A stretch of 64,000 bases of DNA from Macrostomum lignano. Taxonomy: Eukaryota. This document shows positions 17,581 through 39,266 of the stretch, in pieces; the stretch's first letter is position 1; every line of letters begins with the position of its first letter. The translations under genes and the position numbers were made by a program. The stretch is taken from the NCBI GenBank assembly GCA_002269645.1, contig NIVC01003389.1, positions 36,061-100,060 of the forward strand, read 5' to 3'. The notes below the pieces were generated by a model. It worked only from the letters and a program-made list of their open reading frames with translations. It did not search any database and was not told the origin of the DNA.

Positions 17581-18756
17581 AATCCGGACAGAGAGAACAC
17601 TTACACAGGCACACGCTGTGTACAGTAGCCCTGACTCTCATTGTCAGACATGTACATACTCCTGAGGCCGGCTGGTAGTGGACTTTGGTCGAGTCAAGTT
17701 TTAGATCAAGTAGTCAATGCCAGTACTAAAATAATGAAAAAAATATGCTTTCAAAAATGTAACTCGGGGTCATGCCTGTTTTTCATCAATTTTTGCTTTA
17801 AAGAAGATCTTAGTACGAGTACGGAGTAAATAAAACATATTTTGAATTGTTTGTAATCGCATCTTGTCGCAACATATCACTGGGATCTGTATTCAATCTG
17901 ACCTCAAGTGTGCCGCTCTTAAAAGCTTGGACAGGACGAAAAAGTCATCAAAATTACTCGGATTAACCAGTGGCTGACGTCTACGGTAAGCACAGGGAGT
18001 GGTGGGCCGACGCCCCCGACTGCCGGCAATCCCGCGCGGCATCCATGGCTGTTTTGCCAGGCATCGCGACCTCCAGGGAAAATCCGCAGTGAGGAATGCT
18101 CATTCTGTCTCTCCGGTGTCGAGAATACGGAGCACTGCATCTGTGAATGCCCCGTCTGTACTCAGGACAGGCTCACTTACTTCGGCACAAACCCGGACCT
18201 TTCCGACATTTTTCAGGCCCGAGAATCTCTCCCAGCTCGTCCGATACCTAAATGGCTAGGAGAATCACAGGATCTCCCTGCGCAACACCGCAGTACCAGC
18301 TGCCTGTGGTTGTCGGGTTTGCGGAATGGACTTCGACCGCCTCCTGCTGTATCCGGATTCCCGGAACCTCCTGCAGTTGAGTCAAAGTGTTTGGTAGGAT
18401 TGGCCCTCGTGGGAGGGAGCTGCACAGTTCAGCCATTGAGTCCGATGCGTTGTCCGGTGAGCTGAGCAAGTCTGGTTAGGAGGATGTAGTCCGGTTGGAT
18501 GGCTAATAACCGTGTAAATGTACTTTTAACTACCTCTATTGATTTACTGGTAGTGCGGCACTGCATAAAAGTTCGAAATAAAGAATTTACAATGTGGGAC
18601 ATGCTTTTTCTCAAGAAATGCCCAGAACGGCGAGTATAAATTTTTACTTCATAATGTGCAATTTAATTTTCAAGAGGAACGTTAAACGGCATTAATATAA
18701 ATTAGAAGGTAATGAATTTTCTTAGAAATCCAGACAGAATCCCATGAATCATTGGC

Positions 18757-18911
18757 AGTAGTAGAGGATAACACAACTCTGCCGCAGGGAAAGCCACGGA
18801 AATTCCGTGGGCCCGGATCAGAAGGGCGCCTATGTGTTTGCATAGCTCAACTCTGCCGCAGGCAAAGCCATGGGAATTCCGTAGACTCCTAATGAGAGTA
18901 CATAGGCACCT
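18757..18911 (+). repeat. Left terminal inverted repeat (155 bp)
   Basis: Reverse complement of 34134-34286 except for one 2-nt indel (ctaatgagag vs ctaatgag). Confidence 0.95.
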
Positions 18912-18969
18912 GTGTCCCATAGGGGTAATGTGAATACATAGCCGCATGTGTTTACATAGGAGATATTTG

Positions 18970-18977
18970 TATATAAA
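18970..18977 (+). promoter_or_regulatory. Candidate TATA box (TATATAAA) upstream of the PC4-like gene
   Basis: Consensus TATAWAW just inside the left TIR, ~75 nt before the ATG at 19052. The region is AT-rich, so a chance match is possible. Confidence 0.35.
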
Positions 18978-19051
18978 CCAGAAAATTTGTTTTCACAAAT
19001 AATAAAAATTTTGAAATTCTCGCTCCGTTACATCGTAATAACTAATTAATA

Positions 19052-19795
19052 ATGGTCGATATTGGAGAAGGCTACAAACTTCAAGTACAAGAGTATGAAG
19101 GAGTACAGTTTATTGCGATTCGGAAATTTTATCGACATGGCAGCACAGCGAGTTTAAAACCTGGCGTTCCCGGATTTAACCTCAACATCCGACAATGGGA
19201 GAAGTTGAAAGAACTGAAGCGAACTCTCGTGAAGGCGGCCCTAGGCGGGCAACAGAGGATCATCAAACTCGGTTTTGATAAGTTTGTTGAGGTTAAGAAC
19301 GGCATCATCTGGCTAAGACGGCTTCCAGAAGATTGTTGCGAAGAATTTTTGAAGCGAAACACTGTGGCTTTGGCACCAGCTCTGTGGCGAAAACTGTGGG
19401 AGCAGGCTGCATGGATCGACGAGCAGCTGTCTGCCCCACGCCAAATTTCTGATGTGTATGAGCTGGAGTCGGGATCTTCGAGCGAGAGCAACGGTGATGA
19501 TGATGACAACAGCAACAAGGACGACATCGTGCGGCTTGCGAAGACTGAGGATGAGGGCGTCCAATCAAGCACTCTGCGCATCGACGATGAAGTGGTCGCA
19601 TCAACGCCTCTACCGGTGACAAGTGCTGCAGCTGGCTTTATCCCAAAGCAGGATTCGGATTTGCTGCAGGACCCAGTCTGGTATCGCTTCCGGGCTGAAG
19701 CAGCTGCGGTCGAGAACGTCAGGAAGCGCAAGCAACCATATCCGCTGCGCAGGCAGAATGCCATGAGACTGCGCCTCAATGAGGATGAGGAGTGA
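19052..19795 (+). CDS. PC4/Sub1-like ssDNA-binding or coactivator protein with two tandem PC4-like repeats and an acidic/basic tail
   Basis: DIGEGYKLQVQEYEGVQFIAIRKFY...KPGVPGFNLNIRQWEKLKE ~ PC4 [25 protein letters not shown]...KPGRKGISLNPEQWSQLKE. Second repeat KLGFDKFVEV...IWLRR...VALAPALWRKLWEQAAWIDEQL. C-terminal RKRK resembles an NLS. Confidence 0.8.
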   Translation: MVDIGEGYKLQVQEYEGVQFIAIRKFYRHGSTASLKPGVPGFNLNIRQWEKLKELKRTLVKAALGGQQRIIKLGFDKFVEVKNGIIWLRRLPEDCCEEFLKRNTVALAPALWRKLWEQAAWIDEQLSAPRQISDVYELESGSSSESNGDDDDNSNKDDIVRLAKTEDEGVQSSTLRIDDEVVASTPLPVTSAAAGFIPKQDSDLLQDPVWYRFRAEAAAVENVRKRKQPYPLRRQNAMRLRLNEDEE

Positions 19796-20239
19796 AGAAG
19801 AAGAAGAATAAGTGCTTTGAAGAACTTTGGTGACTGGTGACTGACTTAAATTGGCTCATTTAACAATTTCTATAGTTAACATTGCTCATTTATCCAGAAA
19901 ACTTAATTAAGTCTCTCCATTTAAGAAAATCATGCAACCTATTGTTTCTTATCCGCTGAAAAATATAAAAGCTTCTTTTCATAAAAAATTGTTTTCCTTT
20001 GTTCTTGTGCTTAAGAAAAAATTAGACTGTTGACTTTTGTTTCTTGAGAAAATGGAAAAAATTTACTTTGCTCCTGGCCAACCAGCTAGTTTTTCAATTT
20101 GCTCAAAGCTGCTGCATCAAGTTGGAGAAGAGGGTGGGCATAAAAATTGAAAGAGCATTGAACAGTGGCTCAATGAGCAAACCGCGAAAAGAACTTAAAA
20201 AAATTGTTTTGCAGGCTTTCATTCAGCTTGATTTTGATA

Positions 20240-21310
20240 ATGGAAAAGATCTACTACAACCCTGCTCAGCCTGCCAGTTTCTCGGGTGTCTCAAAGCTTC
20301 TGCACGAGCTCAAGAAAACACAGGATAATCGTGAATCTAAAAAGAGCATCGGACAATGGCTGACTGAGCAGCCTGTGTACACACTGCACAAGCAAGCTAG
20401 GAGACGCTATCCTATGGCACCAATCATTGTTAGGGCTATTGATGATCAGTGGGAACTTGACCTGGTTGAGATGATACCATTTGCAAAATACAATAACGGC
20501 TACAAGTATATTCTCACATGTATAGATGTCCTCTCTAAATCTGGTTGGGCCAGGCCTCTAAAAAACAAATCAGCTGCGGAAGTCAAGTTCGCATTCGAGA
20601 GTATCCTGAGGTGCTCAAAGCGCCAGCCACGCACAGTCCGCACGGATCAAGGAAAAGAGTTCATCAATACCAATTTTCGGGAGTTCTGTATAAGCAAGGG
20701 AATTTTGGCATTCCCCACTAATAGTGAGCAAAAAGCAGCCATCATAGAGAGGTGGAATAGAACTTTGAAAAACAAAATGTGGCGATATTTCACCCACAAG
20801 AGCACTTTGCATTGGGTTGATGTGTTGCCAAAGCTGGTCAAGTCGTACAACAACACTTACCACAGAAGCATCAAAATGGCACCGACTAGCGTATGCAAAG
20901 AGAATGAGACTGAGGTCTGGATGAACCTTTACAATGGAAGAGCCATTGAGACTGTGAAGAAGCCAAAGAAGCCCAAATTCAGTGAAAAGCAGTCAGTGAG
21001 AATTTCCAATGCACCCAGGCTATTCCGCAAAGGATACAAGGCCAACTGGAGTGAGGAGGTGTACACTGTAGTATGTAGGGCACCGAAGCACTATCCGTAC
21101 ATGTACAAGATTAGGGACATGAAGGGTGAGGAGATCCGGGGTCTCTTTCATGAGCATGAGCTGCAGGCGGTGCCGGACTCACAGCGGCTGTATGTGATTG
21201 AGAAGATCCTGAAAACGGAGAAGCAGAAGGGAAAAATTCGCTATCTGGTGAAGTGGGCCGGCTACGACTCGACAGGCTGGGTGGATGAAAAAGACTTAAG
21301 AAAGGTTTAG
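20240..21310 (+). CDS. int: Retroviral-type (rve) DDE integrase with C-terminal chromodomain
   Basis: QWELDLVEM, VRTDQGKEF and AIIERWNRTLK give D,D,E. YVIEKILK...YLVKWAGYD chromodomain. Intact ORF. Confidence 0.95.
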   Translation: MEKIYYNPAQPASFSGVSKLLHELKKTQDNRESKKSIGQWLTEQPVYTLHKQARRRYPMAPIIVRAIDDQWELDLVEMIPFAKYNNGYKYILTCIDVLSKSGWARPLKNKSAAEVKFAFESILRCSKRQPRTVRTDQGKEFINTNFREFCISKGILAFPTNSEQKAAIIERWNRTLKNKMWRYFTHKSTLHWVDVLPKLVKSYNNTYHRSIKMAPTSVCKENETEVWMNLYNGRAIETVKKPKKPKFSEKQSVRISNAPRLFRKGYKANWSEEVYTVVCRAPKHYPYMYKIRDMKGEEIRGLFHEHELQAVPDSQRLYVIEKILKTEKQKGKIRYLVKWAGYDSTGWVDEKDLRKV

Positions 21311-21329
21311 CTTTTGCGCATCTCTTCTC

Positions 21330-22154
21330 ATGAGGTTTAACATTATAATGCGAACTATTTTGATTAACAGTGAGCATGCTGAAGGTACTCCTAGTGACTT
21401 TAATTTTTACCTGCCTTCACCTATTTACTTGGATCGAAATGTGGACTATGAGGCAGGTCTGGCTGAAATCCATCTGCCTGCTGCATGGTTCAATGTTGAC
21501 GAGCCTTACTGCTTCACTGTCTCAGATGGAAGAGAGCATGAGGCCCTGGTTCTTCAACCCGGACGCTTTGCTAGAGTGGAGGAGCTGGTGGAGCGCCTGA
21601 ATGAGCTGCTGGCCAACTCTGATTCGCTGTTCTTTGATGCGATGAGTGACAGGGAGTCTGAGATGGAGGCTGATGAGTCCGGCCTGATGGGGCGTAGTGG
21701 CAACAGGGAATTTGGTATGAAGTTCGAAATCCGCAACTCACGAACTGTGGTGCACAACAACACTGCGAGAGCAGAGCTGTTTCTTCCATCTAGCAAAATT
21801 CTGCATTGGCTGGATTTGGAAACCAGGCTGTGAAAATCCAGCCAGGGAGCCGCGTGTCCGAGCATTGCATTGGCTGTCCGCGCACCAGCTTAATCAATGT
21901 ACACTGCAGTGTCGTTGAGTCAACTAATTGCAACTTGGCTCCTGTTGAGAACAGTTGGAATGAAAGCCGGCATTGAATGGGGCAACTATCAAACAAAAAT
22001 ATTTAAGAAAACAATATTCTTCCCGATTCAACGAATCAGTCTTCTTCACAGCATTCGAGTTCAGCTGCGTGACATCTATGGTTGCCCACTGATTGCCCAG
22101 ACACTCAGCCCTGTTCTGCTCACAGTTCAGATTCGAGAGAAACGCATTCAATGA
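21330..22154 (+). CDS. Minor capsid (penton-like, single jelly-roll) protein, split by two frameshifts (~21820, ~21920)
   Basis: N-terminal TPSDFNFYLPSPIYL..DYEAGLAEIHLPAAWFNV and C-terminal LINVHCSVVES..LLRTV..IRVQLRDIYG are typical of Polinton mCP. The three pieces lie in frames 0/2/0. Confidence 0.75.
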
Positions 22155-22537
22155 ACTACCAGCAGCTGATCCAGCAATATTCGGGGGTGAGGACAGGACA
22201 CGAAAAGCCTGCACTCTATGGCTGTGGGAGCTTTCCGGGGATCATGACATACCAGCCTCCTCCAGCGGCTACATCATCATTCTCAACGCATAGCAATGTC
22301 AGGCGGAAAAGAAATACTGAAGCAAGTCCGAAACGATTGAAGAAGAAGTACACCCGAAAGGCAACTGGTAGAGATCGCACCAATAAGAGGTGCAATGAAA
22401 GAAATCCGAGCAAGGCTAGTAGGAAAAAGCTTAAGAATAGGAAGACGAAAGCAAAGAAGAATGCAGCAGGCGGAGGAAAGCGAAAGCGAAAAGTCAGCAA
22501 GAAAACTGTGAAACGCGTGCTCGACTCTCTGTCATAG
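22151..22537 (+). CDS. Small, highly basic putative virion core/DNA-condensing protein
   Basis: ATG overlaps the upstream TGA (ATGA). K/R-rich C-terminal half. LYGCG fits the adenain consensus. Located between mCP and MCP. Confidence 0.65.
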   Translation: MNYQQLIQQYSGVRTGHEKPALYGCGSFPGIMTYQPPPAATSSFSTHSNVRRKRNTEASPKRLKKKYTRKATGRDRTNKRCNERNPSKASRKKLKNRKTKAKKNAAGGGKRKRKVSKKTVKRVLDSLS

Positions 22538-22539
22538 AC

Positions 22540-23820
22540 ATGGCTTACGGATTCAATCCCAGACTTGATTTATTTAAGACGCCTGTTCTACAAACCTGCA
22601 TTGAAAAAGCTACTTATGTTGATATTCACCCAGTAAATTCCATTACTGCAAACTCCCCCATTGAATTTGACTGCCACCAATCTGCCGATGAATACACTGA
22701 TTTGCTTAATTCTTTTCTTTATATTCGCTGCCGCCTTGTGAGACTGGATGGGGGTTTGCTGAGGGAGGATGTTCGAGATGGAGATGGCATCATCACCGAG
22801 CGCAGAGACAGTGATGTGCACCCAGAAAACTTTGTTTTGTCTACAGCCTTCTCAGATGTAATTGTGAGCATTAACCAGCGAGTGGTGTCTGGTGGAGACC
22901 AGCTCTATCCCTACCATGCGTACTTCAAAGCACTAATGAGCTCATCTGATGCCCAGCAACTAAAACTTTACCCTGCTGGCTTCCTGGAGCCGAACTCGGC
23001 AGCTGAAGAGCACACGGAGAGCCACAGGGAATCCCGATGGATGGAGTATGCAGGGCCGCTCTTCAGCGATGTTTTCCAGTGCCCAGTGTTTCTGCTAAAC
23101 AATCTGCACTTGCACATCAAACTGGTGCCCAGCGATGGGGCCTTTGCCATCAGAAGCCCGAATGCAAACAACGCGGCATACCGCATGGAAATCTCTCACT
23201 GCATTTTGCATCTTCGCCGAGTCAAAGTGGTGCCCCACATCAGCCTGGCCCACGAGCAGGGGCTGACAAACCAAAATGCACTGTATCCCATCGAGCGAAC
23301 TGAAATGCAGAACTTCATCCTACCCCAGGGCATTCAATCTAAAAACATTGAAGGATTCACTCATGGAAAATTGCCGAAGTTCATCATGCTGGCCTTCGTG
23401 AGCCACCGTGCATTCAACGGTCATCATCACGCGAGCCCGTTCCAGTTCCAGAGCTTCAACCTTAGCCGGTTGGCTCTAAAGAAAGGTGGGGAAACCGTGT
23501 GCCACGGTGCCTTCACACCTGAAAACAATTCCTTCGTAAGAGAATACTTGCACTACCTGAAAAGCTGTCAATCTGCAAGCCTCACAAATTCGGTTCCGTG
23601 GATCCCTTACCAGCTCTTCTCCAACAACAGCACGGTGTTTGCATTCGATCTCACACCCGAGGGAGCGGCTCTGTGGTACGGACAGAAGGAGGGCAACCTG
23701 CGGCTGGAGATTCGCTTCCACAGGCACTGAATGAAGCGGTGTCCTGATCGTCTGTGCCTGTATGACTCGCTGATTGAGGTCACCAAGCACCGGGAGCTTT
23801 TGCTGGACTATTCCTCTTAA
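22540..23820 (+). CDS. Major capsid protein (double jelly-roll, PY/hexon-like); C-terminus broken by three 1-nt deletions
   Basis: RLDLFKTPVLQTCIE..YVDIHP..SPIEF..EYTDL, FQFQSFNL and VFAFDLTP..GNLRLEIRF. Frame-corrected tail QALNEAV-LIVCA-YDSLIEVTKHRELLLDYSS* ends at TAA 23818-23820. Confidence 0.88.
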
Positions 23821-23825
23821 TTGGC

Positions 23826-24335
23826 ATGGACGCAATTCAACTACTCCATCTCGCCAGAAAATTTTTGTCTTGCCGAAAATTTCTCATCATTACTTTACAT
23901 TCACGCTATAAAAATGTATTGTCTTTGAGTCTAAAAAGAAAATATCGATCAATTCCCTTTGAAAACAAGTTTGTGTTTGTCCTACTACAGCACAATGGCT
24001 CATTTGGTCACTGGGTGGTGTGCTATGCTGGGCAAGGAAATTGCATTGAGCTGTTCAACTCCCTCGGCTGGGAACCTGAAATTTTATCTGTGGTTTATAA
24101 TTTGTTTCGAGAGATTAAAACAACTGGCTTTTGGCTCCGAAGCAATATAAACAGATTTCAATGTGCTAACTCTAATAAATGCGGAGTGTTTTGCATCTAT
24201 TTTGCTTATCAAAAGTTGCTGATCAATCGGTCATTTGAGGGTATTTTAAAGAGTTTGCACTCTAATGAAAAAAATCATTTGAATGATAGAATCTTACAGA
24301 GGTTTGAAGCCAACTTAAGAAAAAGATGTCCGTGA
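23826..24335 (+). CDS. Adenain/Ulp1-like cysteine maturation protease (PRO)
   Basis: GHWV (His), ELFNSLG (usual FDS motif, here Asn) and FQ..SNKCGVFC (Gln, Cys). Confidence 0.85.
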   Translation: MDAIQLLHLARKFLSCRKFLIITLHSRYKNVLSLSLKRKYRSIPFENKFVFVLLQHNGSFGHWVVCYAGQGNCIELFNSLGWEPEILSVVYNLFREIKTTGFWLRSNINRFQCANSNKCGVFCIYFAYQKLLINRSFEGILKSLHSNEKNHLNDRILQRFEANLRKRCP

Positions 24336-24358
24336 TTTCTAATATTTATGCATTAGAC

Positions 24359-25004
24359 ATGGGAGAAAAGCGAGTTTGCTACGATATCCGCCTCAGGCAG
24401 GGAAGCTGCATGATTGTCTGCGGGCCCACCAATGCAGGAAAAACAACCTTTGTCAAACACCTGATCCAGTACAGAGACGTCATGTTTGATGTGAAGCCTG
24501 GCAGAGTTCTGTGGTACTATGGGATCTCACAGGCAGGCCATGCAGAACTGAGCAGCCTAGGTGTGCAGCTGCGCCAGGGATTTCCCACCAACATCGAGGC
24601 AGCACTTAGGCCCAATGACCTGGTTGTTTTCGATGACTTAATAGAGGAAACTTCAAATCTGCTTCAATGCGAAATTTTTTCACAGGAATCGCACATCACT
24701 TGCCGTGCTTTTGGTGATGCTGACTCAGAATATATTTTTCAAGGGAAAAGAGTCGCGAACAATGAGCTTGAATGTAATGTATTTAGCTATCTTGAAAAAC
24801 CCCCGAGACCAGCTGCAGATTGCAGCACTGGGCAGGCAGTGCTTTACAGAGAAGCCCGGCTTTCTGCTGTCAGTGTTCAAGCACGTGACCGCGCAGAACA
24901 GGGGAGCCTACCTGTTCCTAGACTTTCACCCATCAACTCCCGATGAGCTGCGAGTGCGGGCCAGAATTTTGCCCAACCAGCGACCCCATCTTGTATTTGC
25001 TTAA
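24359..25004 (+). CDS. A32/FtsK-like genome-packaging ATPase, two frameshifts at ~24675-24705
   Basis: Walker A GPTNAGKT, Walker B LVVFDD, then FTGIAHH, MLTQNIF, KNPRD and YLFLDFHP in successive frames. Confidence 0.9.
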
Positions 25005-25046
25005 GAAAGTGAAGCTTGTTTTTTATCGGCTATTGTTTTCATCGCT

Positions 25047-25382
25047 ATGGAAGTGCTTGATTCACATGCAAGTCTGTTTGCGGTTCTTGCGTCACCTAAA
25101 TATACCGTGCGCTTCAAGCGGCTGTTGATAAAAAATTGTCCAAAAGAAGTGCGTTATTTTCTTGTCGAGGCCTGCCATAATCTCTTACAAAACAATTTAT
25201 CGTTTTTGATCAATGAAAAAGCTGTTCTTGCAAAGTCAAAAGAGATAATTCGAAAATTACTCAGCAAGAAGAAAGACAGACTTGTTAAGGCTGGCTTCAT
25301 TAAAATACTCCCGATTCTGCTTAAGCTGGTAAAGAAGAAGAAGCAAAATGAACAAATTTTCAGAAATGGTTCTGATTCCTAA
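25047..25382 (+). CDS. Conserved small basic Polinton protein (amphipathic, possibly membrane-active)
   Basis: EACHNLLQNN..L..IIRKL..AGFIKILPILL resembles the recurrent Polinton EC..N.L.GN...GGFL..LL.PIL small ORF. Recognised by eye only. Confidence 0.6.
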   Translation: MEVLDSHASLFAVLASPKYTVRFKRLLIKNCPKEVRYFLVEACHNLLQNNLSFLINEKAVLAKSKEIIRKLLSKKKDRLVKAGFIKILPILLKLVKKKKQNEQIFRNGSDS

Positions 25383-26039
25383 AGCAGAGTATGAGATGTT
25401 GATGCAGAATTTGAAGCCAAATGAGACTAGCACTGACGCTGACTTGAAGCAGGCTCAGAAGAAATGCGATGACATCTTGTATGCCGAGGATTATCCAGAA
25501 GATGTGAAAACCGCCATGTATCAAAGTGCAATGCAAAGTTTGCTGGCCAAGCGCAAGCACGCTGGAAAAGAAGGATCACGAAATACTGAAGCCAAGTTGA
25601 TGAAAACAGAGACACCACAGATGAGCACCTGGGAAGAGAAGATCAGCAAGTCGGTGCCACAGAAATTCAAAACCAGGGCTCGCAGTCTATGGACGATCCT
25701 GTCCACCAATCCAGAGCTGATTAGATTTTGTGAAAACGGAGAGGTGGAAATCGCAGGCACGTCAATCCCTTCCTCAAACATACTGGACTTGATTCAGCAC
25801 GCAGTGAGGGATTCGCATGTGAGCGTGAACCAGTTGGGTGGAACGAGTTCATCGATTTGCTGCAGCAGAAAAAGCTTAATGTTCCGCTTTCCGCTATTGG
25901 TAAATCAGTTAAGAAGAAAATGGCAACCAGCAGAGGGAGTGAACTGGAGAAAGAACAGGCGAGTCTAGTCAAGGGGTACGGGAGCAACACAGCCTGGCTG
26001 AAACTGCCTGGCAGAAAAGTATATAAGAAGGCTGACTGA
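25348..26039 (+). CDS. Conserved Polinton uncharacterised protein, one frameshift at ~25837
   Basis: NGEVEIAGTSIPSSNILDLI..[G]WNEFIDLL..NVPLSAIG matches the recurrent Polinton GE...G..I.GSNI.DL..GW..F...NVP...GN motif. Joining needs one extra base in a G run. Confidence 0.7.
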
Positions 26040-26067
26040 CTCCGAAATTTCGAGGGAAAGCTGCATC

Positions 26068-26500
26068 ATGAACTACATTGACTTCCAAGGATTCCCGTGC
26101 AACAGCACAAGCAAAAAATTTGTTGTGAAGGAGTTGGCAGTTGTTCAAGTCAGAGCGGGAAGCTACCGCATTGCTCACCATGTGTACGCACCTCCGTATC
26201 CATGGGAGAGAGTCTCACCTGACATGCGAGTTTGCTACAGACAGCTATCAAAGAGTCTGCACCAGTTTAAGTGGAATGATGGAACCCGTCCGTACATGGA
26301 ACTGGCGGAAGACATTCTGAGCATTGCCAGTGGTCCGATCTGGACAAATGGGGAAAGGAAGTCTATTTTCCTGACTGAGCTGCTTGGTAGACAAGTTTAT
26401 AACCTAGAAGATTTGGGAGCACCCTCGACTGAAGATTCAGATACTGGCTGTGCAGTGAGAAATTCGTTGCTGCACTACAGTTGGCTTAAGCCAAAGTTCT
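26068..26500 (+). CDS. Conserved Polinton protein with DnaQ/DEDD-like fold (PZ-like); 3' end uncertain
   Basis: IDFQGF..KELA..PPYPW..H..W.DG..Y..G..K..NLEDLG..CA..N pattern, recurrent in Polintons. Confidence 0.65.
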
Positions 26501-26587
26501 GCATCAACTTAAGAAGCGAGCAGTGTCCGTGGCACACAAGCAGTAAAGTTGGCAGAAGCAGATTTGCTGAAGAAGTTGACGATCGAA

Positions 26588-27177
26588 ATGAGCCTACCAG
26601 CTACAGCCCTAAGAGTGACCAATCTGGTTGGCGGAGTAGATCTGAGGCTGGATGGTGGCAGGGGCGCTCAGCTACCTCTACGGGAACTGGCTCTCAGCAT
26701 GGCTCATGTGATCTACCGGGCCGTCTGGCCCCGGGTGCTCATCAAGCGGATGCGAAGTCCCAGAGTGACTCTGCTACTCTACCCTACTGGGCAACTGAGC
26801 ATCTGCGGTGCCAAGACCCACGCAGACGCCAAAAGGGCTGCCCGTCGCTTCGTGGCTATGCTGCATCGGAGAGTGCCGCTCAACTGCTGCCTCCTCAAGC
26901 CATTTGTGTTCGGATTAAAACTATAACTGCTCATGGTAAATTTAACTTCTGCAATGCTTTGTCCCTCACAAATCTTGCTGCCTCTGGCATACTGTCTTAC
27001 GCTGAGTATGAGCCCGAGTCGTTCTCTGCTCTAATTTCTACATTACGTTATTGTAAATGCTTGTTATTTCATACTGGTTCTTTTGTTCTTAGTGGAGCAA
27101 AATCTATGAGCATGTTGCGCTTCGACCTTTCTACGTTGCATAGTTTAATCAGCCAGTTTATCACCTATCAAAAATAA
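26588..27177 (+). CDS. TATA-binding-protein (TBP)-like protein with both saddle repeats, one frameshift at ~26900
   Basis: Repeat 1, frame of 26549: TNLVGGVDL..LPLRELAL..RMRSPRVTLLLYPTGQLSICGAKTHADAKRAARRF ~ TBP [52 protein letters not shown]. Repeat 2, frame of 26068: YEPESFSALI..LLFHTGSFVLSGAK ~ YEPELFPGLI..LIFVSGKVVLTGAK. Confidence 0.85.
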
Positions 27178-27178
27178 A
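27173..27178 (+). terminator. Candidate poly(A) signal closing the rightward Polinton gene cluster
   Basis: AATAAA overlaps the TBP-like stop and is followed by a T/GT-rich tract. Confidence 0.4.
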
Positions 27179-27906
27179 CAAAAAGTGTGTTCCGTTTGTT
27201 CTTGAATGTTTGCGTAAATTCGTTACGGAAAACGGCATCTTTAAATTATTGATTTTTATTTTAAAAAATAAGTTTTAACTAAAAAATTAAAGGTGAAATG
27301 AGCATAGAATAATTGAAAACTGGGAGCTAAAACGTGTAATCAGATCTCTCCCCTCACAAAAACAGAAAGAGGGCATAGAACCCATTCCAAAAAGGTTCTG
27401 CCAAAAGCGAAATTGCTTAGATTGATACACGTGAATGAAGAAATTAATTAATCAAACTCGACTGACACTCATACATGTAACTGGACCGCAAAATTACTAG
27501 TATAGGCAAGAAATTTCAACAAAAGCAATGCAAAGAAATGTTTTAGCATCATGTTAAAAAAGTAATAAATGAACATAAAACCCAGCAATAAAAATTTCAA
27601 CACATTAAATTTACTGACTTTGCAATTTAATATTACGAGTAGAAATCGTGCAGTTACAAGGTACTGAAATAAAATTACTAATAAATTAATAGCTAGCATT
27701 AAGACTTCAGACAAAAAGTTCAAAAAGACACTAAAATTATGGTGAAACAGGAGAGGCAAATTGCTGCAACTACTTCTATCTGAGATAGCAAAATTGAGAC
27801 AGCATATAATTTAAACGGATAAAGGCGAGTATATGTTTGAAGAAATCAAAGACTAAATATTCAGAATAAAATGTGTAGAGGCCGTGTGATAAAAAGTTAT
27901 ACTCAG

Positions 27907-28215
27907 TCACTTATTAAATTCGTGGCGCCGCTTTCGGGAGGCTGTAGCATTCACGTGCTGTTGCAGCTGCGACGACTCCGGATGAAGAAGTTGGAAATGG
28001 CCAAACGGGAGACTGTAGTTCGGTGCCAGCCAAGCGCGCTTGTCCTCCCAAATGCTTAAGGCACACTTTCGCTGCTGCAGCGTGAATAGCCTGTGTTGGA
28101 TGCTAGCGATCCTGTGGATGATGACGAACATACTACTCAGATCATTGAAGACTCTCAAGTAATCACTATGCGCAATCTCCTTCTTGACGACACATCCTTG
28201 AATGCCTTTGGCTTT
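27907..28215 (-). CDS. polB: Detached C-terminal segment of pPolB
   Basis: KAKGIQ..VVKKEIAHSDY...HRLFTLQQRKCALSIWEDKR..SLPFGH is the typical Polinton pPolB C-terminus. Confidence 0.85.
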   Translation of the reverse strand, partial: KAKGIQGCVVKKEIAHSDYLRVFNDLSSMFVIIHRIASIQHRLFTLQQRKCALSIWEDKRAWLAPNYSLPFGHFQLLHPESSQLQQHVNATASRKRRHEFNK

Positions 28216-28413
28216 AAATAAAGGTAAATATCAACATGAAGTATTATTTGAGTTGCCGATGCATTTCGTCCATTTGCATTAGGACATCGTCAGGGTCTTT
28301 TTATTGAGAAACAATTTGAACGAATATTCAGTATATATAGATAGTTGAGAGTAACAAGAGTAGTTGAATTGAGTTTTTAATTGATGGTTTAAAACTTGTA
28401 CATAGTAATCAAT

Positions 28414-28546
28414 TTTTGATACAGTATTGGTTGGGTAAAGTGCATATCAGTTTCAAGCCAGTCCGGTCATTGACAATGGTCATTGACCATTGACTTGACT
28501 GGTCATTGACTGATATGCACTTTACCCAACCAATACTGTATCAAAA
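28414..28546. mobile_element. MITE-like foldback insertion with 38-bp perfect inverted repeats, interrupting polB
   Basis: 28414-28451 is the exact reverse complement of 28509-28546. The 57-nt spacer has three GGTCATTGAC copies. Confidence 0.65.
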
Positions 28547-31500
28547 GGAGCTCCAGCTCCTTCGTCCTTGATGCAACCGAGGCGAGCTTTCAATTCATTT
28601 GAGAACAGCGGGTGCTCAGGTGAATAGTTGGAAGTGTCAAGGAGTTTCTTTGCTTTTAGCAGTGGAAGAACTTCCGACTGCACATCCATATTCTGAATGC
28701 AAAGAAAGAGCGAGTCGGTGTCTCCACCACAGAGCCGAACACGGGCACCCTCTTGCTCAAGCCAAGGCTTCAATTTGTCGTAGAATAACTCGTACATGAT
28801 TAGCTTCGAATAGTCAAGAACACACTGGCCAATAAAAATCGGACGATCAAGCTTGACCTTAGTCTTCTGGAATTCAATTATGCTCAGTGAGTCGGTAATT
28901 ATGATAAAGTTCTTAATGGATGGTTTTGAAGCCAGCACCTTTGCTTTTGCAGTGTTGGTGCAAATCCGAATGTCACGTCGCTTACGCACGTTTTCCATTG
29001 TTTTTCCGAAGAGTGCATTGTTTTTTAGTTTGTAGTAGTCTTTCTCGAAGCTGTTTGTCGCAGCAGCTCTTTTCACGCTGTTCATGTTAACATAGTCAGC
29101 AAATATCGGCTCCTGTTTGTACTCAATCATTCGATTAATTCGTTTGATTTTCATTCCATGGCTCAAGTAGAACGCCAAGATAGCCGAATGAAGCACATAA
29201 CTCTGCTTGTCATGGCAGGTGAGCAGAAGTTTTTCTGCCGAACGATAGGCTGCTTTGTCTCCAGTAATCTGCCTCCAAAGCTGTCGCATGTAGGCAGGAA
29301 ATTCTTTGAATTTTGGTGCTTCTTTTTCTGGTGCAAAAGGCAAATCTTCAGTGGTGGAATGTATCTCTGCTGGATATAGAAGATCGACATCGAGCAGATA
29401 AGCAATTGGATCTGAGATTTTGAGCCCTCGGATACGATCCTCGGTCCACAGCTGTAGCTCATCTTCGGAAAGCCAGCGAAATCCATTTGCAGGCAAGTTC
29501 ATGGTAAGAGCTTGACCGTAAAGGTTGTTAGCATCTACTGCTAGAAGCTCGGTAGGAACAGCTTGATCAGCGCCCTCGTCGTGACAGTCATCATCATCAT
29601 CATCATCATTGTCATTGCAGATAGTCTGATTGTCAGCTGCTTCCAAATTTTTTCTAATATCTGGAGAGTTGGCTGACACTCTGTGTATGTTCACAAATGA
29701 CATGCCACCGCGAATACCGCGCTCGAATGTTGCATACATTTGCGAATCCGTAATCAGCTCGATTCTGGATTTGAGAGACTTCAGTGCTGAAGCAAAAGAT
29801 AATCCCGGGGTTGAAACGAAATGCACCGGATCAAGGCCATCATCACGAAGGCTGAGCCTGCGAAAATTTTCAAAGACATCGGCGAGCTGCCGAATGTCAA
29901 GCTCAAGGTAGCATAGCATGTACTCTTTCAGCGTTTTAACTTGGAATTCGTGCCATGCTTTCTGTGCATGCCTGTAATCCTCATCACTGCAGTGGCTTTT
30001 AGTCAGAACGTTGTAGAATTGTTCTTTACTAGGCAGCTCGGTATCCTCAAGGACATTTGAATTGGTTAAGTAGTCGTACGGAAAAGTGCATTTTCTGAAT
30101 AAAACTTCTGGAGACAACAGTGGAAACTTACTTTTTAGCAGGCTAGTGATGGTGCACTCTTCTTCTGGCAGGTTCTTGATCAGCTGAGCCAAGCTGGCGT
30201 TGAGAAATTGGTTAGAATCAATGAATTGAATGGTAAAGAACAATGGCTTAGTCTTTCCTCCCCTCTCGTACTCATCGATTTTGAAGTCAACTTTCATTGA
30301 AACAAACTGCTCAGGATTCTGTGGAATAACCGAAATCCTCCATCCATCCATGAGATCCAAAGCCGTTGACATAATGAGATGAAGATCATAGCCTTTTAGA
30401 TTGTGGAAAACCACAGGAAGAAAACGCCTTTTTAGACGAGCCTGCATGTTGCACTGAGCACAGGCTGCACCTCGGAATTCGCCACTGAGGTGATCATGAT
30501 CCCAGTGCTTTCCGCTTTCACTATCAAAGCCGCTTCCGCAGTAGTGACACGATATAGCGTCGCGGAAGCGTTGCTTTGCAGCCTCCGTTCTAATAGCCGT
30601 CTGATGACTGAACTCCGTGTTCCAGCCATAAACCTCTCGAGCTAGCTGTTCAAGGGACTGCAAGAAGTCAGAAACACACTTTTTCGGATTTTCACTCACA
30701 AATATGTTAACATCATTGTCGACTCCTATAGGTGATAACCCTGTGAGGCCTGCTCGGTGCACCACCAAGTAACCAGCAGCAACGGCAACATGCTCTGTCA
30801 GCTTTACAGTGCTCGAACCAGCTTCAGTCTGCTGCCCTGTGTGAGGTGCATTCAATGCCTCGAAGTCGGCGTACACAATGAATGGTGGGCTGATTGTCTT
30901 TTCCCACGCCGTAAACCGAAGTACATTGTGATCTTCATCCGGAAGTTCTTCCTGTACAAAAATCCCACCAGGCTCACAGACATCTTCACAGTGCTCATCG
31001 AACGCCTTGCTAGTGTGAAATGACAGCAGACATCGCTCACACCACTTTCGCTGGTACAGGTGGGCTTTACTGTTCAACAATCTGTTGATGTTCGAGACAG
31101 CACACCAATGACCACCAGCTGAGTTCTCGTTCGTGGATGGTGGAAGAAACATCAGCAGGACAACTGTTCGTTCTCTCATGGTAGCTGCGCTTGGCTGTCG
31201 GAGGACTTCAGCAGCTTCATTCTCCCAGGTGAAAACAGTGAAGCAAAGGGTTGGATTTAATTCCTCGACAGCAGACAGATCGTACAAATTGATCGGCAGA
31301 CTCAGTCCCGTAATGTTAATCTCATCTAGCCATTCGGTGTACGAGGATTCTCGTTGAGCTGACTTCTTAATACGGCAGTGATCTTTGTGAAGAAAGGCAA
31401 GGCACGCGTAAACAAAGCAATTTTCACCGCTGCTAGGAGGAGAAATGACGGCCTTCTTTTGAAAAAGCGCAGTCGGCAAACTAAACCCAGCCGCACGCCC

Positions 31501-31989
31501 CGAATAGTAGGGAGTTCGAACAGCGAGGGCAGAGCAAAGGTCGAAGAAATTTATCTTGTCAATGGCCCATCCACTGCCATTAGCGTTGTACACGTCTACT
31601 CTCTGCTCTAACTCTGCAAATCGCTGCCTCCACCAGTCATCAAATTCCTGCACATCAACCAGCATACAAAGATTTGTACTCATCCATTTGTTTTCAACAT
31701 TGACTGCTTCTGCTGCCTGCACCCGAATCATGCGCACGTTTAGCTTAATTTGTGCTCTTAGCGAACAGTTGTCAAAGGAGTCAAGACGAACTTCGAGATA
31801 CTGCAGAACCGCATATTTGACCAGGTCTAGAAACTCGAATGGATCAATGTCAGCTGTTGGGGTGAAGCGATGAATCTGCAGTACATCATCGTGGGCACTG
31901 TTCACCAAGGAGATAACACATGAAGACCCTAAAAATAAAATCGAGAGATAAGATAGTGAAAATCGAGAAACATAAACTGAGAATCTCAT
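28522..31989 (-). CDS. polB: Protein-primed family B DNA polymerase with Zn-finger and endonuclease-VII-like insert; truncated at ~28547
   Basis: ExoI VYADFEAL, C..C..DHDHLSGEFRGAAC..CN, ExoII FHNLKGYD, Pol A DANNLYG, Pol B KLKNNALFGKT, Pol C GGDTDS, then KDE. Confidence 0.95.
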   Translation of the reverse strand: MRFSVYVSRFSLSYLSILFLGSSCVISLVNSAHDDVLQIHRFTPTADIDPFEFLDLVKYAVLQYLEVRLDSFDNCSLRAQIKLNVRMIRVQAAEAVNVENKWMSTNLCMLVDVQEFDDWWRQRFAELEQRVDVYNANGSGWAIDKINFFDLCSALAVRTPYYSGRAAGFSLPTALFQKKAVISPPSSGENCFVYACLAFLHKDHCRIKKSAQRESSYTEWLDEINITGLSLPINLYDLSAVEELNPTLCFTVFTWENEAAEVLRQPSAATMRERTVVLLMFLPPSTNENSAGGHWCAVSNINRLLNSKAHLYQRKWCERCLLSFHTSKAFDEHCEDVCEPGGIFVQEELPDEDHNVLRFTAWEKTISPPFIVYADFEALNAPHTGQQTEAGSSTVKLTEHVAVAAGYLVVHRAGLTGLSPIGVDNDVNIFVSENPKKCVSDFLQSLEQLAREVYGWNTEFSHQTAIRTEAAKQRFRDAISCHYCGSGFDSESGKHWDHDHLSGEFRGAACAQCNMQARLKRRFLPVVFHNLKGYDLHLIMSTALDLMDGWRISVIPQNPEQFVSMKVDFKIDEYERGGKTKPLFFTIQFIDSNQFLNASLAQLIKNLPEEECTITSLLKSKFPLLSPEVLFRKCTFPYDYLTNSNVLEDTELPSKEQFYNVLTKSHCSDEDYRHAQKAWHEFQVKTLKEYMLCYLELDIRQLADVFENFRRLSLRDDGLDPVHFVSTPGLSFASALKSLKSRIELITDSQMYATFERGIRGGMSFVNIHRVSANSPDIRKNLEAADNQTICNDNDDDDDDDCHDEGADQAVPTELLAVDANNLYGQALTMNLPANGFRWLSEDELQLWTEDRIRGLKISDPIAYLLDVDLLYPAEIHSTTEDLPFAPEKEAPKFKEFPAYMRQLWRQITGDKAAYRSAEKLLLTCHDKQSYVLHSAILAFYLSHGMKIKRINRMIEYKQEPIFADYVNMNSVKRAAATNSFEKDYYKLKNNALFGKTMENVRKRRDIRICTNTAKAKVLASKPSIKNFIIITDSLSIIEFQKTKVKLDRPIFIGQCVLDYSKLIMYELFYDKLKPWLEQEGARVRLCGGDTDSLFLCIQNMDVQSEVLPLLKAKKLLDTSNYSPEHPLFSNELKARLGCIKDEGAGAPFDTVLVG

Positions 31990-32089
31990 GATTGCTTATA
32001 AATCCAGCTCAATTAGCTATTCATAATAATCGATGTCTGTATGCAGAATCGAGGAGGGTGTTTTTGGATGTATACAATCGATATAGGTG

Positions 32090-32295
32090 TGCAGAGGTGT
32101 GCGAAGTCGAGGTGGGGTGTCCAGAGTCGAGGTGTGGTGTCCAGAGTCGAGGTGGGGTGTCCGGAGTCGAAGAAGGGATGTGCAGAGTCGAGGAGGGGGT
32201 GTGCGGAGTCGAGGAGTGGGTGTGCGGAGTCGAGGAGGGGGTGTGAAGAGTCGAGGAGGGGGTGTGCAGAGTCGAGGACGGGGATGTGCAGAGTC
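32090..32295 (+). repeat. ~21-bp minisatellite inside the Polinton (gagtcgaggagggggtgtgca)
   Basis: Tandem units upstream of the polB start. Confidence 0.85.
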
Positions 32296-33261
32296 AGGGT
32301 TGGTGTACGGACTCGGGGTGGGCGGGTGTTATTACGCATTAATTAAAACTGAATTAGTTACACATTTCGAGTTGAAGGTTTAAAATTTTTCCACTTCAAA
32401 TATTGGTAAGAAAATAATTGATTTTTTACATTAACAGAGTGGCAAAACTCACCTGTCCCTTCACCTGCTCTTCGCCTAGAACATGTTGTAGGATCCTGCA
32501 TGTTGCGACTGCCGGCTGCCAGGCAATGCTGATGCAGATTTGTCTGCTTCCAGCTTCGAATTGATCAATTTTAAGGCCAATGGCAATGCTTAGCTTAAAA
32601 AGGAATAATTAAGAAAAATGCAAAGTAGAGATCGAATCTAGTTAAGATGCTCTTATTCTATTCGCGATATTGAGACTTAGCAACGAGCACCAAGCTATAG
32701 AAAAGCAGCCCGCGGATAGTAAAAACCTCAAAATCAAAACTAATAGTCGAGTAATGCGAATAGGTTGCCATGATGCGATAGCTTTTAGCATCAAATCCAC
32801 CGATACGAGTTGATTTGCTATTTTTCTGTCTAGTTTGCGTTTTTTCTAAAAATAATTAAGTGTGTATTATGAGAAAAAAACAATGCAAAAACAACGTGTA
32901 TTTGGTATAAACGGCTTTGTAGCAAGAAAATAATTTAGAAGAAGAAACTTTTATTTAGCATTAAATTACAAACTTTCTGCATAGAAAGCAGTATAATTCA
33001 TTATAAGCTACCATGTACATTCTTGCTCTCCTAATAACTAAATATTGGTATCAAAGAGCCTCCAGCTTGATAAACTGCTTAGCCCAGCCCAACGAGATAA
33101 ATCACAGGTAACATGCACTGAAAAGATTAATTTAATTTAAGCAGTTTTTAACTTCTTTTAGAGCTCCTCCCCTTATCAAAAGTCCACTCATTTTTGTAGA
33201 ACTTTTTTGTGTGCAAAAAATTCGTTTCCCTTGCCAACAAAATACTCCAGGCTAAAGCAAA

Positions 33262-33846
33262 TTAAGAGTTACTCAAGCGAATACGGATCCCCCCTCCAAA
33301 GTCAATTGAGTACTCGCCCACAACGCTACTCGGTAGGACGAATTGAAGGCAAACTGACGGTGCAGCCATCGGTTCAGCGGCTTGGACTCCTGCTGATTGT
33401 TGAACCACCGGTGGGGTAGCATGAGGTTCGACTCCTGCTGATTGTGGAAACTCTGGTACCACCGGTGGGGTAGCATGAGGTTCGAAATCTCGTAGGAGAT
33501 CAGACAGGCTGGCATCCGCCATCATTCCAGCCATATTTTTTCCAGCGACTGGAACAGCCCTGTGCGGTGGCTGCTGCTCGACCGTGGCTTTTTCGTTCGT
33601 CTCCTCCGGCTCCAACTCGTGCTCCTCAAAGAAAGCCGTGTCCAATTCTGGCGGAGCAACAAAATCAGCGGCAGCAGCATCATCGTCATGGCGATTTACC
33701 GGTGTCTGAAGACTGAGAGCACCAGCCGCTGGAACGTCAACGCTGGCAGCTTGATGGTCGATGCCAGCAGGTCCAGAAGCAGCAGCTGGATAGTCGACGC
33801 TGGCAGGTCCAGGAAGGCTGGCAATCTTTTGAATACGCCGCCAACT
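33262..33846 (-). CDS. Orphan Polinton reading frame (acidic, Pro/Ala-rich); start uncertain
   Basis: The frame of ORF 33262-33645 stays open upstream to a TAA at 33847-33849. Contains an internal EPHATPPVV duplication. No homology recognised. Confidence 0.4.
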   Translation of the reverse strand, partial: SWRRIQKIASLPGPASVDYPAAASGPAGIDHQAASVDVPAAGALSLQTPVNRHDDDAAAADFVAPPELDTAFFEEHELEPEETNEKATVEQQPPHRAVPVAGKNMAGMMADASLSDLLRDFEPHATPPVVPEFPQSAGVEPHATPPVVQQSAGVQAAEPMAAPSVCLQFVLPSSVVGEYSIDFGGGIRIRLSNS

Positions 33847-34133
33847 TTACCCCACCCAGTCGAGGGTGGCAATAAAACTACTGATAACTGAGCACTCTCT
33901 CCTTTCAGCAACAAAGCCGCCGCCGCCGCCAGCTCCCAGACAGCGGGAGAGAGAGAGGCTTGGCTACCACTATTTTTGTTTACAGAAGTTAGTTATTACC
34001 GATAAAATTATATAATAAAGTATTAGTATAATACTGAATACAATAAAATACCGCTGATATTTGCCAATCGTTCAACACAATTTCTAGAGATTCCCCTAGC
34101 TCGCCTCTGTGCATACTTGTGGATTCCCCCATG

Positions 34134-34286
34134 AGGTGCCTATGTACTCATTAGGAGTCTACGGAATTCCCATGGCTTTGCCTGCGGCAGAGTTGAGCTA
34201 TGCAAACACATAGGCGCCCTTCTGATCCGGGCCCACGGAATTTCCGTGGCTTTCCCTGCGGCAGAGTTGTGTTATCCTCTACTACT
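34134..34286 (-). repeat. Right terminal inverted repeat (153 bp)
   Basis: See left TIR. Confidence 0.95.
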
Positions 34287-35095
34287 ATTGGCGAATTATG
34301 ACGGCTAACTTTGAAGTTTAGTTCTGTCGCAGCGAGTCCCGGACTGTTGGTCGAACTCTCAAATATTGGCATGTTTTTATCAAATAAAGTAGTTTGAATC
34401 TTGAAAAATGTTTTGAGTAGCTATAAACAGATTAAATTAACACACTTCAGAAGTCAAACAATGCCTGGCTAAATACATTGAATGCCCGGCCAGTGAGTGT
34501 GTTGTGTTCACACCCACTGGGGGCAGGAGACAAACAAGCCACTGGATTGGCGGGCTTGCAGCATAAAATTAAGAATGCACAACTGAATGAGTAGGGCTTA
34601 TATGGAACTTCAATTTTTGCCTGTTCATCAACCAAGCACATTGTGTGAACTGCAAGATTTTATCACCCTCTGTGCGAATATAGTCACAATGAGAACTGCG
34701 AGAACGAGCAAGAAAGATAGAACTTTGACTTGCCAAGCAGGCGTGTACACAGTGCTGACCTGAAGTACGAGCTGTGTGCATACTCGACAGAAAGGGAACT
34801 TCTACTTTTGATAAACATTAGATTCATAAATATAAGTTGTTAACTAATACAATACCAAATCAATCTAAGCACCTACAAAGGTACAAGTGCAGAACAGCAA
34901 CCAGAGCGTCTCACTTCCGGGTACGAGTAAGTGCACGCATTATTGAGCCAACGGCTTTATTATTATACAATTGCAACTATGAAAGCCCTGCTATTATCAT
35001 ACGCATCCTTCTGAACTGAAAAGTGGCGTTTTATCTGCCTCTCTCGTTGCTGGGGGGTGCTTCTTTAATAACATTTGACTTTGCCTTTTAGAGAA

Positions 35096-36038: not shown

Positions 36039-36264
36039 CCAGCTGATCGGCTTTATCTTGATATTTCAACTCGCCTGACATATTTTAATTGTTAAGTACG
36101 ATATATATTCCAATTCGTCAATATTTATACTGTAATAGTAGCTTGTACTGTAGTGTATTATTTGGACTTTTATTTTTTATCTGCAAGTGTGTGAGACTCA
36201 CAAGTTATCCTTAACGATATGATTGATTGCCTGAAATCTCTCTTTATTTGGCCGGCCATAGGTA

Positions 36265-38950: not shown

Positions 38951-39266
38951 GAGGTTGTAGCCAAGTGGCTAGAGCGTCGGACTCACAACTGAAAGGTCGG
39001 GGGTTCGATTCTCGACCCAATCAGAACAATTTGTGTCCTTGAGCAAACACTTAACTCTGCATTGCTTCAGTTCACCCAGCTGTAAAATGGGTGCCAGCAT
39101 TAGCTGGGGTAATTGAGGGTGTGTGTGAGGACCCCCCCCCCCCCAGTCCTTGGGCTGAACAGCCCGCAGCCTTCAGATGCGCTGCGCAATAGCTGCGGCT
39201 GAGCTGTCGGTTGCACATCTGCCCTTTTGGGCAGGTGTAAAAAATTATTTTGTTACTATTATTATA
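38951..39266 (+). mobile_element. tRNA-derived SINE with CORE-like central domain
   Basis: A box tagccaagtgg, B box ggttcgattc. Central tgtgtccttgagcaaacacttaac..cagctgtaaaatggg resembles the MIR CORE. AT-rich tail. Related copies at 56200 and 58410. Confidence 0.8.

Follow-up and report, generated by a model that had tools for sequence, protein, structure and literature searches.

Mavericks (Polintons) carry capsid genes and no RNA polymerase, and how the expression of their genes is timed is an open question. It is raised by a 64,000-nt stretch of the Macrostomum lignano genome (GenBank assembly GCA_002269645.1, contig NIVC01003389.1, positions 36,061 to 100,060, forward strand; hereafter the window), in which a TATA-binding protein (TBP) homologue is encoded inside a Maverick. 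We asked whether this gene is a genuine TBP, how it is distributed among such elements, and what it could do for them.

The element and its TBP gene

The element spans 15.5 kb (18757-34286), ending in two arms of 140 nt (18757-18896 and 34147-34286) that are 100% complementary. These terminal repeats, the 6-bp duplication around them and a retroviral-type integrase (Pfam rve, 49 bits) place it among the Mavericks/Polintons. A packaging ATPase, a protease and a double jelly-roll (DJR) capsid gene are recognized through weak Pfam matches, homology to Pox_A32-positive ATPases and DJR clusters. The Polinton context given in the first-pass annotation holds, with inverted arms, an ATTGGC duplication and ORFs of integrase-plus-chromodomain, protease, P-loop ATPase and pPolB type. 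The genes on the + strand follow the order PC4-like, integrase, putative minor capsid, basic ORF, major capsid, protease, ATPase, two unassigned ORFs, exonuclease-like and TBP. The element belongs to family A, one of four TBP-bearing Maverick families discussed below, and its features are as follows.

18751..18756, +: target-site duplication, left copy, ATTGGC (6 bp); same hexamer at 34287-34292
18757..18896, no strand: left terminal inverted repeat, 140 nt, beginning AGTAGTAG
18970..18976, +: TATA word of canonical type, 82 nt upstream of the PC4-like ORF; candidate host-TBP promoter
19052..19795, +: PC4-like ORF (Pfam PC4, 29.6 bits; cut-off 25)
20240..21310, +: retroviral-type integrase with C-terminal chromodomain (Chromo 24.1 bits, slightly below cut-off)
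21297..21302, +: TAAGAA ahead of the putative minor capsid ORF; subfamilies L053 and L062 have a homologous site
21330..21833, +: putative minor capsid (penton) ORF, of which this copy has a truncated form; placed by position, no Pfam match, indel rows in the gene
22151..22537, +: small basic ORF, possibly core-protein-like by composition
22432..22437, +: TAAGAA, 108 nt upstream of the major capsid ORF
22540..23730, +: major capsid ORF of double jelly-roll type; its relative in L051 (427 aa, 86% identical) is longer; no Pfam match
23826..24335, +: adenain-like maturation protease (Pfam Peptidase_C5, E 0.004, below cut-off)
24326..25004, +: packaging ATPase, in two frames in this copy; TAAGAA at 24316; relatives match Pox_A32 above cut-off
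25002..25007, +: TAAGAA, 45 nt upstream of ORF 25047
25047..25968, +: two conserved Maverick ORFs (25047-25382 and 25348-25968); sibling forms have no Pfam match
26020..26029, +: TATATAAGAA, a canonical TATA overlapping TAAGAA, 44-48 nt upstream of the exonuclease-like ORF
26068..26587, +: exonuclease-like ORF; no Pfam match
26510..26515, +: TAAGAA, 78 nt upstream of the TBP start; kept in 6/6 family A stretches compared
26588..26880, +: TBP repeat 1, in the frame of ORF 26588-26926
26880..27177, +: linker and TBP repeat 2 (EPE stirrup, F190/F207 equivalents)
26930..26940, no strand: point where element subfamilies cross over, at the beginning of repeat 2 (identity tiles, dS jump, loose ends at 26,936)
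27173..27178, +: AATAAA overlapping the TBP stop; first + strand AATAAA after 24,174
28522..31989, -: protein-primed family B polymerase-type ORF, C-terminus cut short (1155 aa against 1277 aa in a sibling)
31993..32000, -: TATAAGCA word (family C type), immediately upstream of the polymerase ORF
34147..34286, no strand: right terminal inverted repeat
34287..34292, +: target-site duplication, right copy

Three of these labels are assumptions of ours: ORF 21330-21833 is presumed to be the minor capsid gene from its position and a motif, ORF 26068-26587 is taken as exonuclease-like from an acidic motif, and ORF 28522-31989 is taken as the polymerase from its motifs. The polymerase-type ORF is 37-48% identical to its paralogues, and its only Pfam match is Endonuclease_7, with none to DNA_pol_B_2; the polymerase of another TBP-bearing locus, L119, does match DNA_pol_B_2. 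The L051 relative of the major capsid protein lies among DJR-like clusters at 0.97-0.98 by features, with a recognition score below threshold. No RNA polymerase ORF was found among the ORFs of the 15.5-kb element. A 59-nt inverted repeat (85% complementary, 28414-28546) lies at the 3' end of the polymerase ORF, and beyond the element the window contains three related blocks, one of them inverted, with coiled-coil ORFs (34500-47700) and two SNAP-like ORF pieces (39611-40459).

Both halves of the TBP gene exceed the cut-off of the Pfam TBP profile (PF00352, 22.9 bits). Repeat 1 lies in an ORF of 112 aa (26588-26926; 46.7 bits, E 2.8e-12) and repeat 2 at the 3' end of ORF 26068-27177 (40.1 bits, E 3.2e-10, for 26893-27174). 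The gene's position at 26588-27177, its split across two frames and its two TBP repeats, all of which had been proposed from the letters of the DNA, are therefore confirmed by the ORF list and by the significant profile match of each half. The frameshift lies near 26,880, likeness to sibling proteins stopping at residue 97, and the length difference is present in contigs from all four sequencing runs. A DNA search of the genome with the TBP gene gave at least 40 matches. Among 19 other copies examined, 17 have an unbroken frame (196 aa in 13, 190 aa in four) and two are broken at sites different from that of the window copy. Since natural unbroken frames exist, repair of the frame was unnecessary and later work used the natural ones. 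The unbroken siblings led us to dismiss a programmed frameshift. We also dismissed a 369-aa exonuclease-TBP fusion, which the break itself creates; the fusions in other broken copies are different ones. The break may represent real decay or an assembly error. The window copy shows 23 indel events against one sibling (21300-32000), and its terminal repeats are perfect; near-identical siblings differ by 3-10 indels and 5-8 substitutions per 4.3 kb, and indels about as numerous as substitutions suggest assembly noise.

In family A copies without the break, the exonuclease-like frame reads on through TBP repeat 1; in the window copy it reads into repeat 2. Of 14 family A stretches, 11 leave this frame open over the whole of repeat 1 (26588-26926 in the window; L005:1569-2420). 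Under synonymous re-coding the chance of this is about 0.04 for each lineage, and the lineages are not independent of one another. The overrun is possibly an overprinted tail.

Residues, fold and constraint of the TBP

Residues were read on P0001, a sibling protein of 196 aa with an unbroken frame, against yeast TBP. In yeast numbering, P0001 keeps N69, V71, T112, L114, E186, E188, F190, L205 and F207, and has Pro for F99, Tyr for F116, Ser for V122, Cys for T124, Lys for Q158, Thr for N159, Thr for V161, Lys for V203 and Ser for T215. The canonical set of four intercalating Phe and two central Asn is thus represented by Pro/Tyr/Phe/Phe and Asn/Thr. The first-pass annotation had read the four Phe positions as W, Y, F, F. 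The last three are correct (Tyr65, F146 and F161 for F116, F190 and F207), but Pro48 occupies the F99 column, in which 111 of 113 non-element TBPs have Phe; the reading was off by one because Trp47, which is His in family B, stands one residue before it. The other residue assignments are accurate, namely the kept Asn of repeat 1 (N69, N12 in P0001), the intact TFIIB-contacting stirrup (E186/E188, here E142 and E144), Thr for Asn in repeat 2 (N159, Thr112) and the absence of an N-terminal extension. The acidic stirrup is found in 18/18 family A/B-type rows, with Ser, Thr, Leu, Met or Ile at L189. Loss of F99, of R196 (variable) and of L189 (Ser/Thr) could weaken binding to DNA or to TFIIB.

P0001 matches solved TBPs in sequence (35 distinct chains, E down to 1e-14). 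Its predicted structure is a TBP saddle (pLDDT 95.7, pTM 0.87) whose top PDB matches are TBPs, with TM scores of 0.76-0.82 and rmsd of 2.0-2.9 for most entries, although the model is not independent of cellular TBPs because the folding alignment held 114 non-element TBPs. Coding constraint was estimated from nine subfamily copies of family A. Repeat 1 has a dN/dS of 0.27 or less in 35 of 36 pairs; for repeat 2 the value is 0.07-0.26 in 14 of 36 pairs, synonymous sites being saturated in the other 22. Values elsewhere are 0.09 in family D, 0.17 and 0.13 in metagenome pairs, and 0.56-0.83 in three family B pairs. The gene encodes a TBP that is compact and complete, with two repeats, and that is under purifying selection in family A. 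The proposal of a divergent, potentially functional TBP in a Polinton is supported by the profile match, the predicted fold, the unbroken siblings and the dN/dS values.

A captured host TBP that persists as a functionless passenger is the least probable account of the gene and is largely refuted by dN/dS. The broken window copy and the nearly neutral evolution of family B copies would fit it, as would an AU test that did not reject a grouping of host TBP with the family A/B-type rows (p 0.417). However, 17 of 19 other copies are unbroken, dN/dS is about 0.1-0.25 across saturated dS, and TBP is present in distant Mavericks. A degenerating host retrocopy confined to this one copy, which the first-pass annotation had set against its own reading, is contradicted by many copies in four families and by only 28% identity to host TBP.

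The pattern of kept residues bears on a second alternative, in which the protein serves as a decoy or shuts off the host, titrating TFIIB, TFIIA, NC2, Mot1 or TAF1 or occupying host TATA boxes, and host TBP reads the element promoters. Family A keeps protein-facing surfaces (the EPE stirrup and a basic helix-2 patch, K82, R86, R87 and R94) and has several altered DNA contacts, as such a role would allow. The helix-2 patch, however, is not kept in family B. The TBPs of the two families are 33% identical and their common residues, among them the non-canonical K111, T112, K157, Y65 and S71 (P0001 numbering), cluster on the DNA face and the stirrups; invariance of DNA-face residues across both families argues against a decoy, which also does not predict the family-specific words described below. 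We consider it unlikely, though the strongest of the competing accounts.

Comparison with known TBPs gives a similar picture. Cellular TBP has the same saddle fold, and the window type is 28-29% identical to host TBP. TRF2/TLF proteins are marked by the loss of three Phe. The window type keeps F190 and F207; host TRF2 lacks F190 and falls inside the cellular clade. Among viral proteins, the vTBPs of beta- and gamma-herpesviruses (KSHV ORF24, HCMV UL87) have a TBP fold and act with host Pol II at variant (TATT) late promoters (PMC12529657). ORF24 is a 752-aa multidomain protein of a six-protein complex, without an acidic stirrup and with a predicted TFIIB clash; V122, T124 and L205 are replaced in it by Asn, Asn and Ser. 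The Maverick TBPs, in contrast, are stand-alone cores of 165-200 aa, and those of families A and B keep EPE; P0001, a 196-aa core with the stirrup, does not have the herpesvirus architecture of a Pol II-binding N-terminal domain and a C-terminal DNA-binding domain. F99 is kept by ORF24 and lost in the window type. Several Maverick TBPs resemble ORF24 in having polar residues at V122, T124 and L205; the window type has Ser, Cys and Leu where the TBPs of L112 and L115 have N, N and S, like ORF24. TBP homologues of Nucleocytoviricota and mirusviruses resemble the window type in being virus-encoded TBP folds (Foldseek E 1e-11 to 1e-5, 8-21% identity), but match its fold more weakly than cellular TBPs do. 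Many of these viruses encode their own RNA polymerase, unlike the 15.5-kb element. The window gene is thus a real member of the TBP family, and by membership neither a canonical TBP, nor TRF2, nor a herpesvirus vTBP.

TBP genes across Maverick families

The closest named proteins are M. lignano gene models. The host genome has a normal TBP and TRF2, at three places each. Of 150 TBP rows that were scored, the remaining 138 have lower scores, and in 20 of 20 stretches taken from around rows of this kind Maverick genes adjoin the TBP. TBP-like genes occur in four Maverick families of this genome, A (the window) and B, C and D. The first-pass annotation noted that TBP is not a canonical Polinton gene. 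The gene is no rarity among Mavericks, recurring in these four families and in metagenomes. Family B has 24 near-full-length places in the genome; its copies (L086-L095) are about 12 kb long, mostly without a full polymerase, and have a tract resembling subterminal repeats between the exonuclease-like and TBP genes. The TBP-likes of families C and D are very divergent (31, 22.6 and 21.2 bits, and one without a match), so that one of four tested passes the Pfam cut-off.

Several further observations concern families C and D. No ATG is found at the expected start of their TBP-like open frames (L139:1245-1799; L153:4942-5475). A 276-aa ORF (L139:204-1034) lies directly upstream of the TBP-like gene in six of six family C stretches in which the latter is seen or partly seen, and is a candidate partner of it. 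In L159 (minus strand, near 2,000-3,350) the TBP-like frame continues into what we take to be nucleoside-kinase-like sequence; in L157 the two are separate ORFs. Family C also carries dUTPase and phospholipase A2-like ORFs (L139:3365-4433), family D a Fic-domain ORF (L153:2630-3409), and in L156:2477-6858 a different capsid-like gene block adjoins the family C polymerase.

Within family A the gene is a mosaic. Copies (L051-L063) are 91-99% identical left of about 26,935, and their right arms are unrelated, with repeat 2, spacer and polymerase 37-70% identical. Contigs from two of four runs depart from the window sequence at 26,936 and, by eye, continue into another repeat 2 type. Judged from these alignments, the family A TBP is a natural chimera of one shared repeat 1 and many repeat 2 types. 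Each unbroken right arm examined keeps a constrained repeat 2, which suggests that the TBP gene predates the divergence of the polymerase lineages. Module swapping is reported in a preprint (10.64898/2026.10.13.758929), and a crossover in the TBP gene fits it. A second junction was observed near 21376, at the start of the capsid block, with loose ends in two of four runs; from the loose ends at both places, 21,376-26,936 may move as a single module.

Beyond this genome, a profile search of 1.84 billion representatives returned eight proteins at E 1e-30 or better, one a duplicated plant TBP and seven of element type (P0004, P0008, P0014 and four gene models or fusions). The window's subtype therefore looks narrow. 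No relative was found in 192 candidate stretches of a metagenome scan with the family A/B alignment, nor in viral-contig scans with alignments A1, A4, A5 and A6 and proteins P0279 and P0195; a viral-contig scan with the ATPase gave one locus, L170. A metagenome scan for compact TBP-likes gave 23 loci. Of the 19 strong ones, 16 have integrase, capsid, ATPase or protease genes and three, on short contigs, have none in view; none were seen at the four weak loci. In L119 the order is polymerase, ATPase, integrase, TBP, minor capsid and major capsid, and PC4 scores above its Pfam cut-off on the TBP contig in L113, L115, L123 and L129. Compact TBP-likes also make up the P0192, P0228 and P0263 clusters, where 198 and 35 members lie on megabase contigs. 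Some are Mytilus records named TBP. They look like multi-copy element genes.

In trees, the window type lies near compact TBP-likes of 165-190 aa. Quick trees put it outside the eukaryotic clade (support 97) and separate 23 element-type rows from 17 cellular and archaeal rows (SH-aLRT 87), with long branches. The phylogeny against host TBP and TRF suggested in the first-pass annotation may set element rows apart, but the AU test cited above leaves a grouping with host TBP unrejected. Short TBP-likes without fetched context (group Y and most of group X) were omitted from the last tree.

Candidate promoter words and a possible mechanism

Recurrent words were first noticed by eye upstream of genes and then counted. 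TAAGAA is the top hexamer upstream of 25 genes pooled from families A and B and L119, occurring before 14 of them (17 in 2,750 nt upstream, against 16 in 32,805 nt). Family C has the word TATAAG[CT]A in 5/12 genes and family D has TATAAATA in 5/12; in a table of families (A/B/L119, C and D) by words, off-diagonal matches are zero. Words lie 34-110 nt upstream of many genes, mostly 34-60 nt before the start codon. Subfamilies unused in the choice of words, with ORFs called mechanically, carry the family word in 9/16 (A), 12/50 (C) and 8/18 (D) genes against null means of 1.2-1.8 (p 0.0005 each), although they are not fully independent because they share ancestry with the training copies. In L118 the word precedes four of eight genes (p 0.056, not significant alone). 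Packed stop codons do not explain TAAGAA, since GAA follows 16 of 51 upstream TAA. The words are absent from about half of the genes, and in family B TAAGAA is not top-ranked (2/6 genes). One family C subfamily keeps its word with no TBP seen in cis, at a place interrupted by another element. Listings of words upstream of the polymerase gene in other copies are unreliable, as the stretches may omit that region. L170, the one complete TBP-less Maverick compared, has TAAGAA before none of ten genes and no strongly enriched hexamer; TAAGAA there has a 6:1 sense bias.

Aligned on the family C and D words, TAAGAA would occupy positions 3-8 of an 8-bp box. Window sites mostly have T directly before it, at box position 2 (11 of 13), against G at 11 of 13 sites of L119 and 10 of 15 of L118. 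The yeast mutant TBPm3 (I194F, V203T, L205V) reads G at box position 2, which shows that these residues determine the base read there (PMC1636458). In the L118/L119 TBPs V203 is Thr and L205 is Cys, two of the three TBPm3 positions being changed, and the G at position 2 fits these residues. TBPm3 is a laboratory mutant, and the window protein differs from it in having Lys at 203 and Leu at 205; L112-L119 are the closer parallel. The family-specific upstream words give indirect support to an altered DNA specificity of the window-type TBP, as proposed in the first-pass annotation.

The protein could instead be a dosage supplement of ordinary specificity, supplying TBP where that of the host is scarce (for example in the germ line), with the words as inherited TATA variants. 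The family D word is canonical, TBP-less L170 has TATA-like words before some genes at similar distances, and PDB entry titles point to crystals of wild-type TBP on a G(-26) box and to its tolerance of TATAAG boxes in crystals; host TBP may therefore read some of the words. Yet the words of family A and L118/L119 mostly have T or G at position 2, where G abolishes binding of wild-type TBP (PMC1636458), and the DNA face has diverged in a conserved manner. We hold this to be unlikely as well, and a little behind the decoy. Another possibility is that the TAAG words are late promoters for the polymerase of a helper large DNA virus, the TBP having some other task. Late promoters of baculovirus/nudivirus type contain TAAG, as do the words of families A, B and C. 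Promoter motifs shared with helper viruses appear to be a theme of virophage papers. The position of many words 34-60 nt before the start codon, however, fits a box at -30, and the family D word lacks TAAG; this reading is improbable. Still less probable, though not quite so remote as the passenger, is a structural role in replication or integration, by bending a terminal origin or tethering the integrase to Pol III genes. TBP often adjoins integrase and PC4 in metagenome contigs, but the 140-nt terminal repeat contains no TATA-like or TAAGAA word, and no tRNA gene was found in any of the 21 loci scanned or in the window.

At a probability of roughly 60%, we favour the view that the element encodes its own factor for promoter recognition, which would bring in host Pol II in the way herpesvirus vTBP does, but with the TFIIB stirrup kept. 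The element TBP would bind its family word in the minor groove and bend it; in family A the box would read N-T-TAAGAA, which corresponds to a TATA box carrying G at position 6 and a base other than A at position 2. The kept EPE stirrup would recruit host TFIIB, and host RNA polymerase II would thereby be directed to the virion-assembly genes. More speculatively, first expression may come from canonical TATA boxes readable by host TBP, at the PC4-like gene and the exonuclease-like/TBP unit, host-read TATA first and the element word later making an early-to-late switch, and the PC4-like protein may act as coactivator. As to origin, we tentatively suggest, at somewhat less than even odds, an ancient capture of TBP, often with PC4, in a widespread animal Maverick/polintovirus lineage, in which TBP and word co-evolve family by family.

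The only precedent we found for a Maverick-type TBP is a label in one figure legend: a 'TBP' gene of a MELD virus, midsize and with adintovirus-like PolB (Starrett et al. 2021, Fig. 5, in a section on non-animal datasets; PMC8502044). In the accessible portions of that paper and its supplement and of preprint 10.1101/697771 nothing was found on TBP distribution, residues, promoters or function, nor was TBP or TATA found in those of PMC11131425, PMC10748475, PMC11161782, 10.64898/2026.06.19.733378 and 10.64898/2026.10.13.758929. None of the papers listed in a further search paired an element name with TAAG. Mentions may exist in subscription journals, Repbase reports, GenBank annotations or preprint supplements.

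In annotation, the many TBP-family matches of this genome may belong to elements and not be host paralogues, and the same may hold for some short 'TBP' records from other animals. A self-encoded TBP with a matching word offers a concrete, testable mechanism for Maverick gene expression, and would argue that these elements express their genes in the nucleus as a regulated viral programme. It would also provide TBPs of altered specificity, together with candidate sites, as a panel made by nature, from which one could learn how residues of TBP read the TATA box through a surface that is almost invariant in cells. If TBP and word do co-evolve family by family, one animal genome would hold several orthogonal TBP-promoter codes. 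The late-transcription switch would be a minimal one, resembling herpesvirus vTBP by convergence but working via host TFIIB. The findings suggest that these elements steer the gene-reading machinery of their host to themselves.
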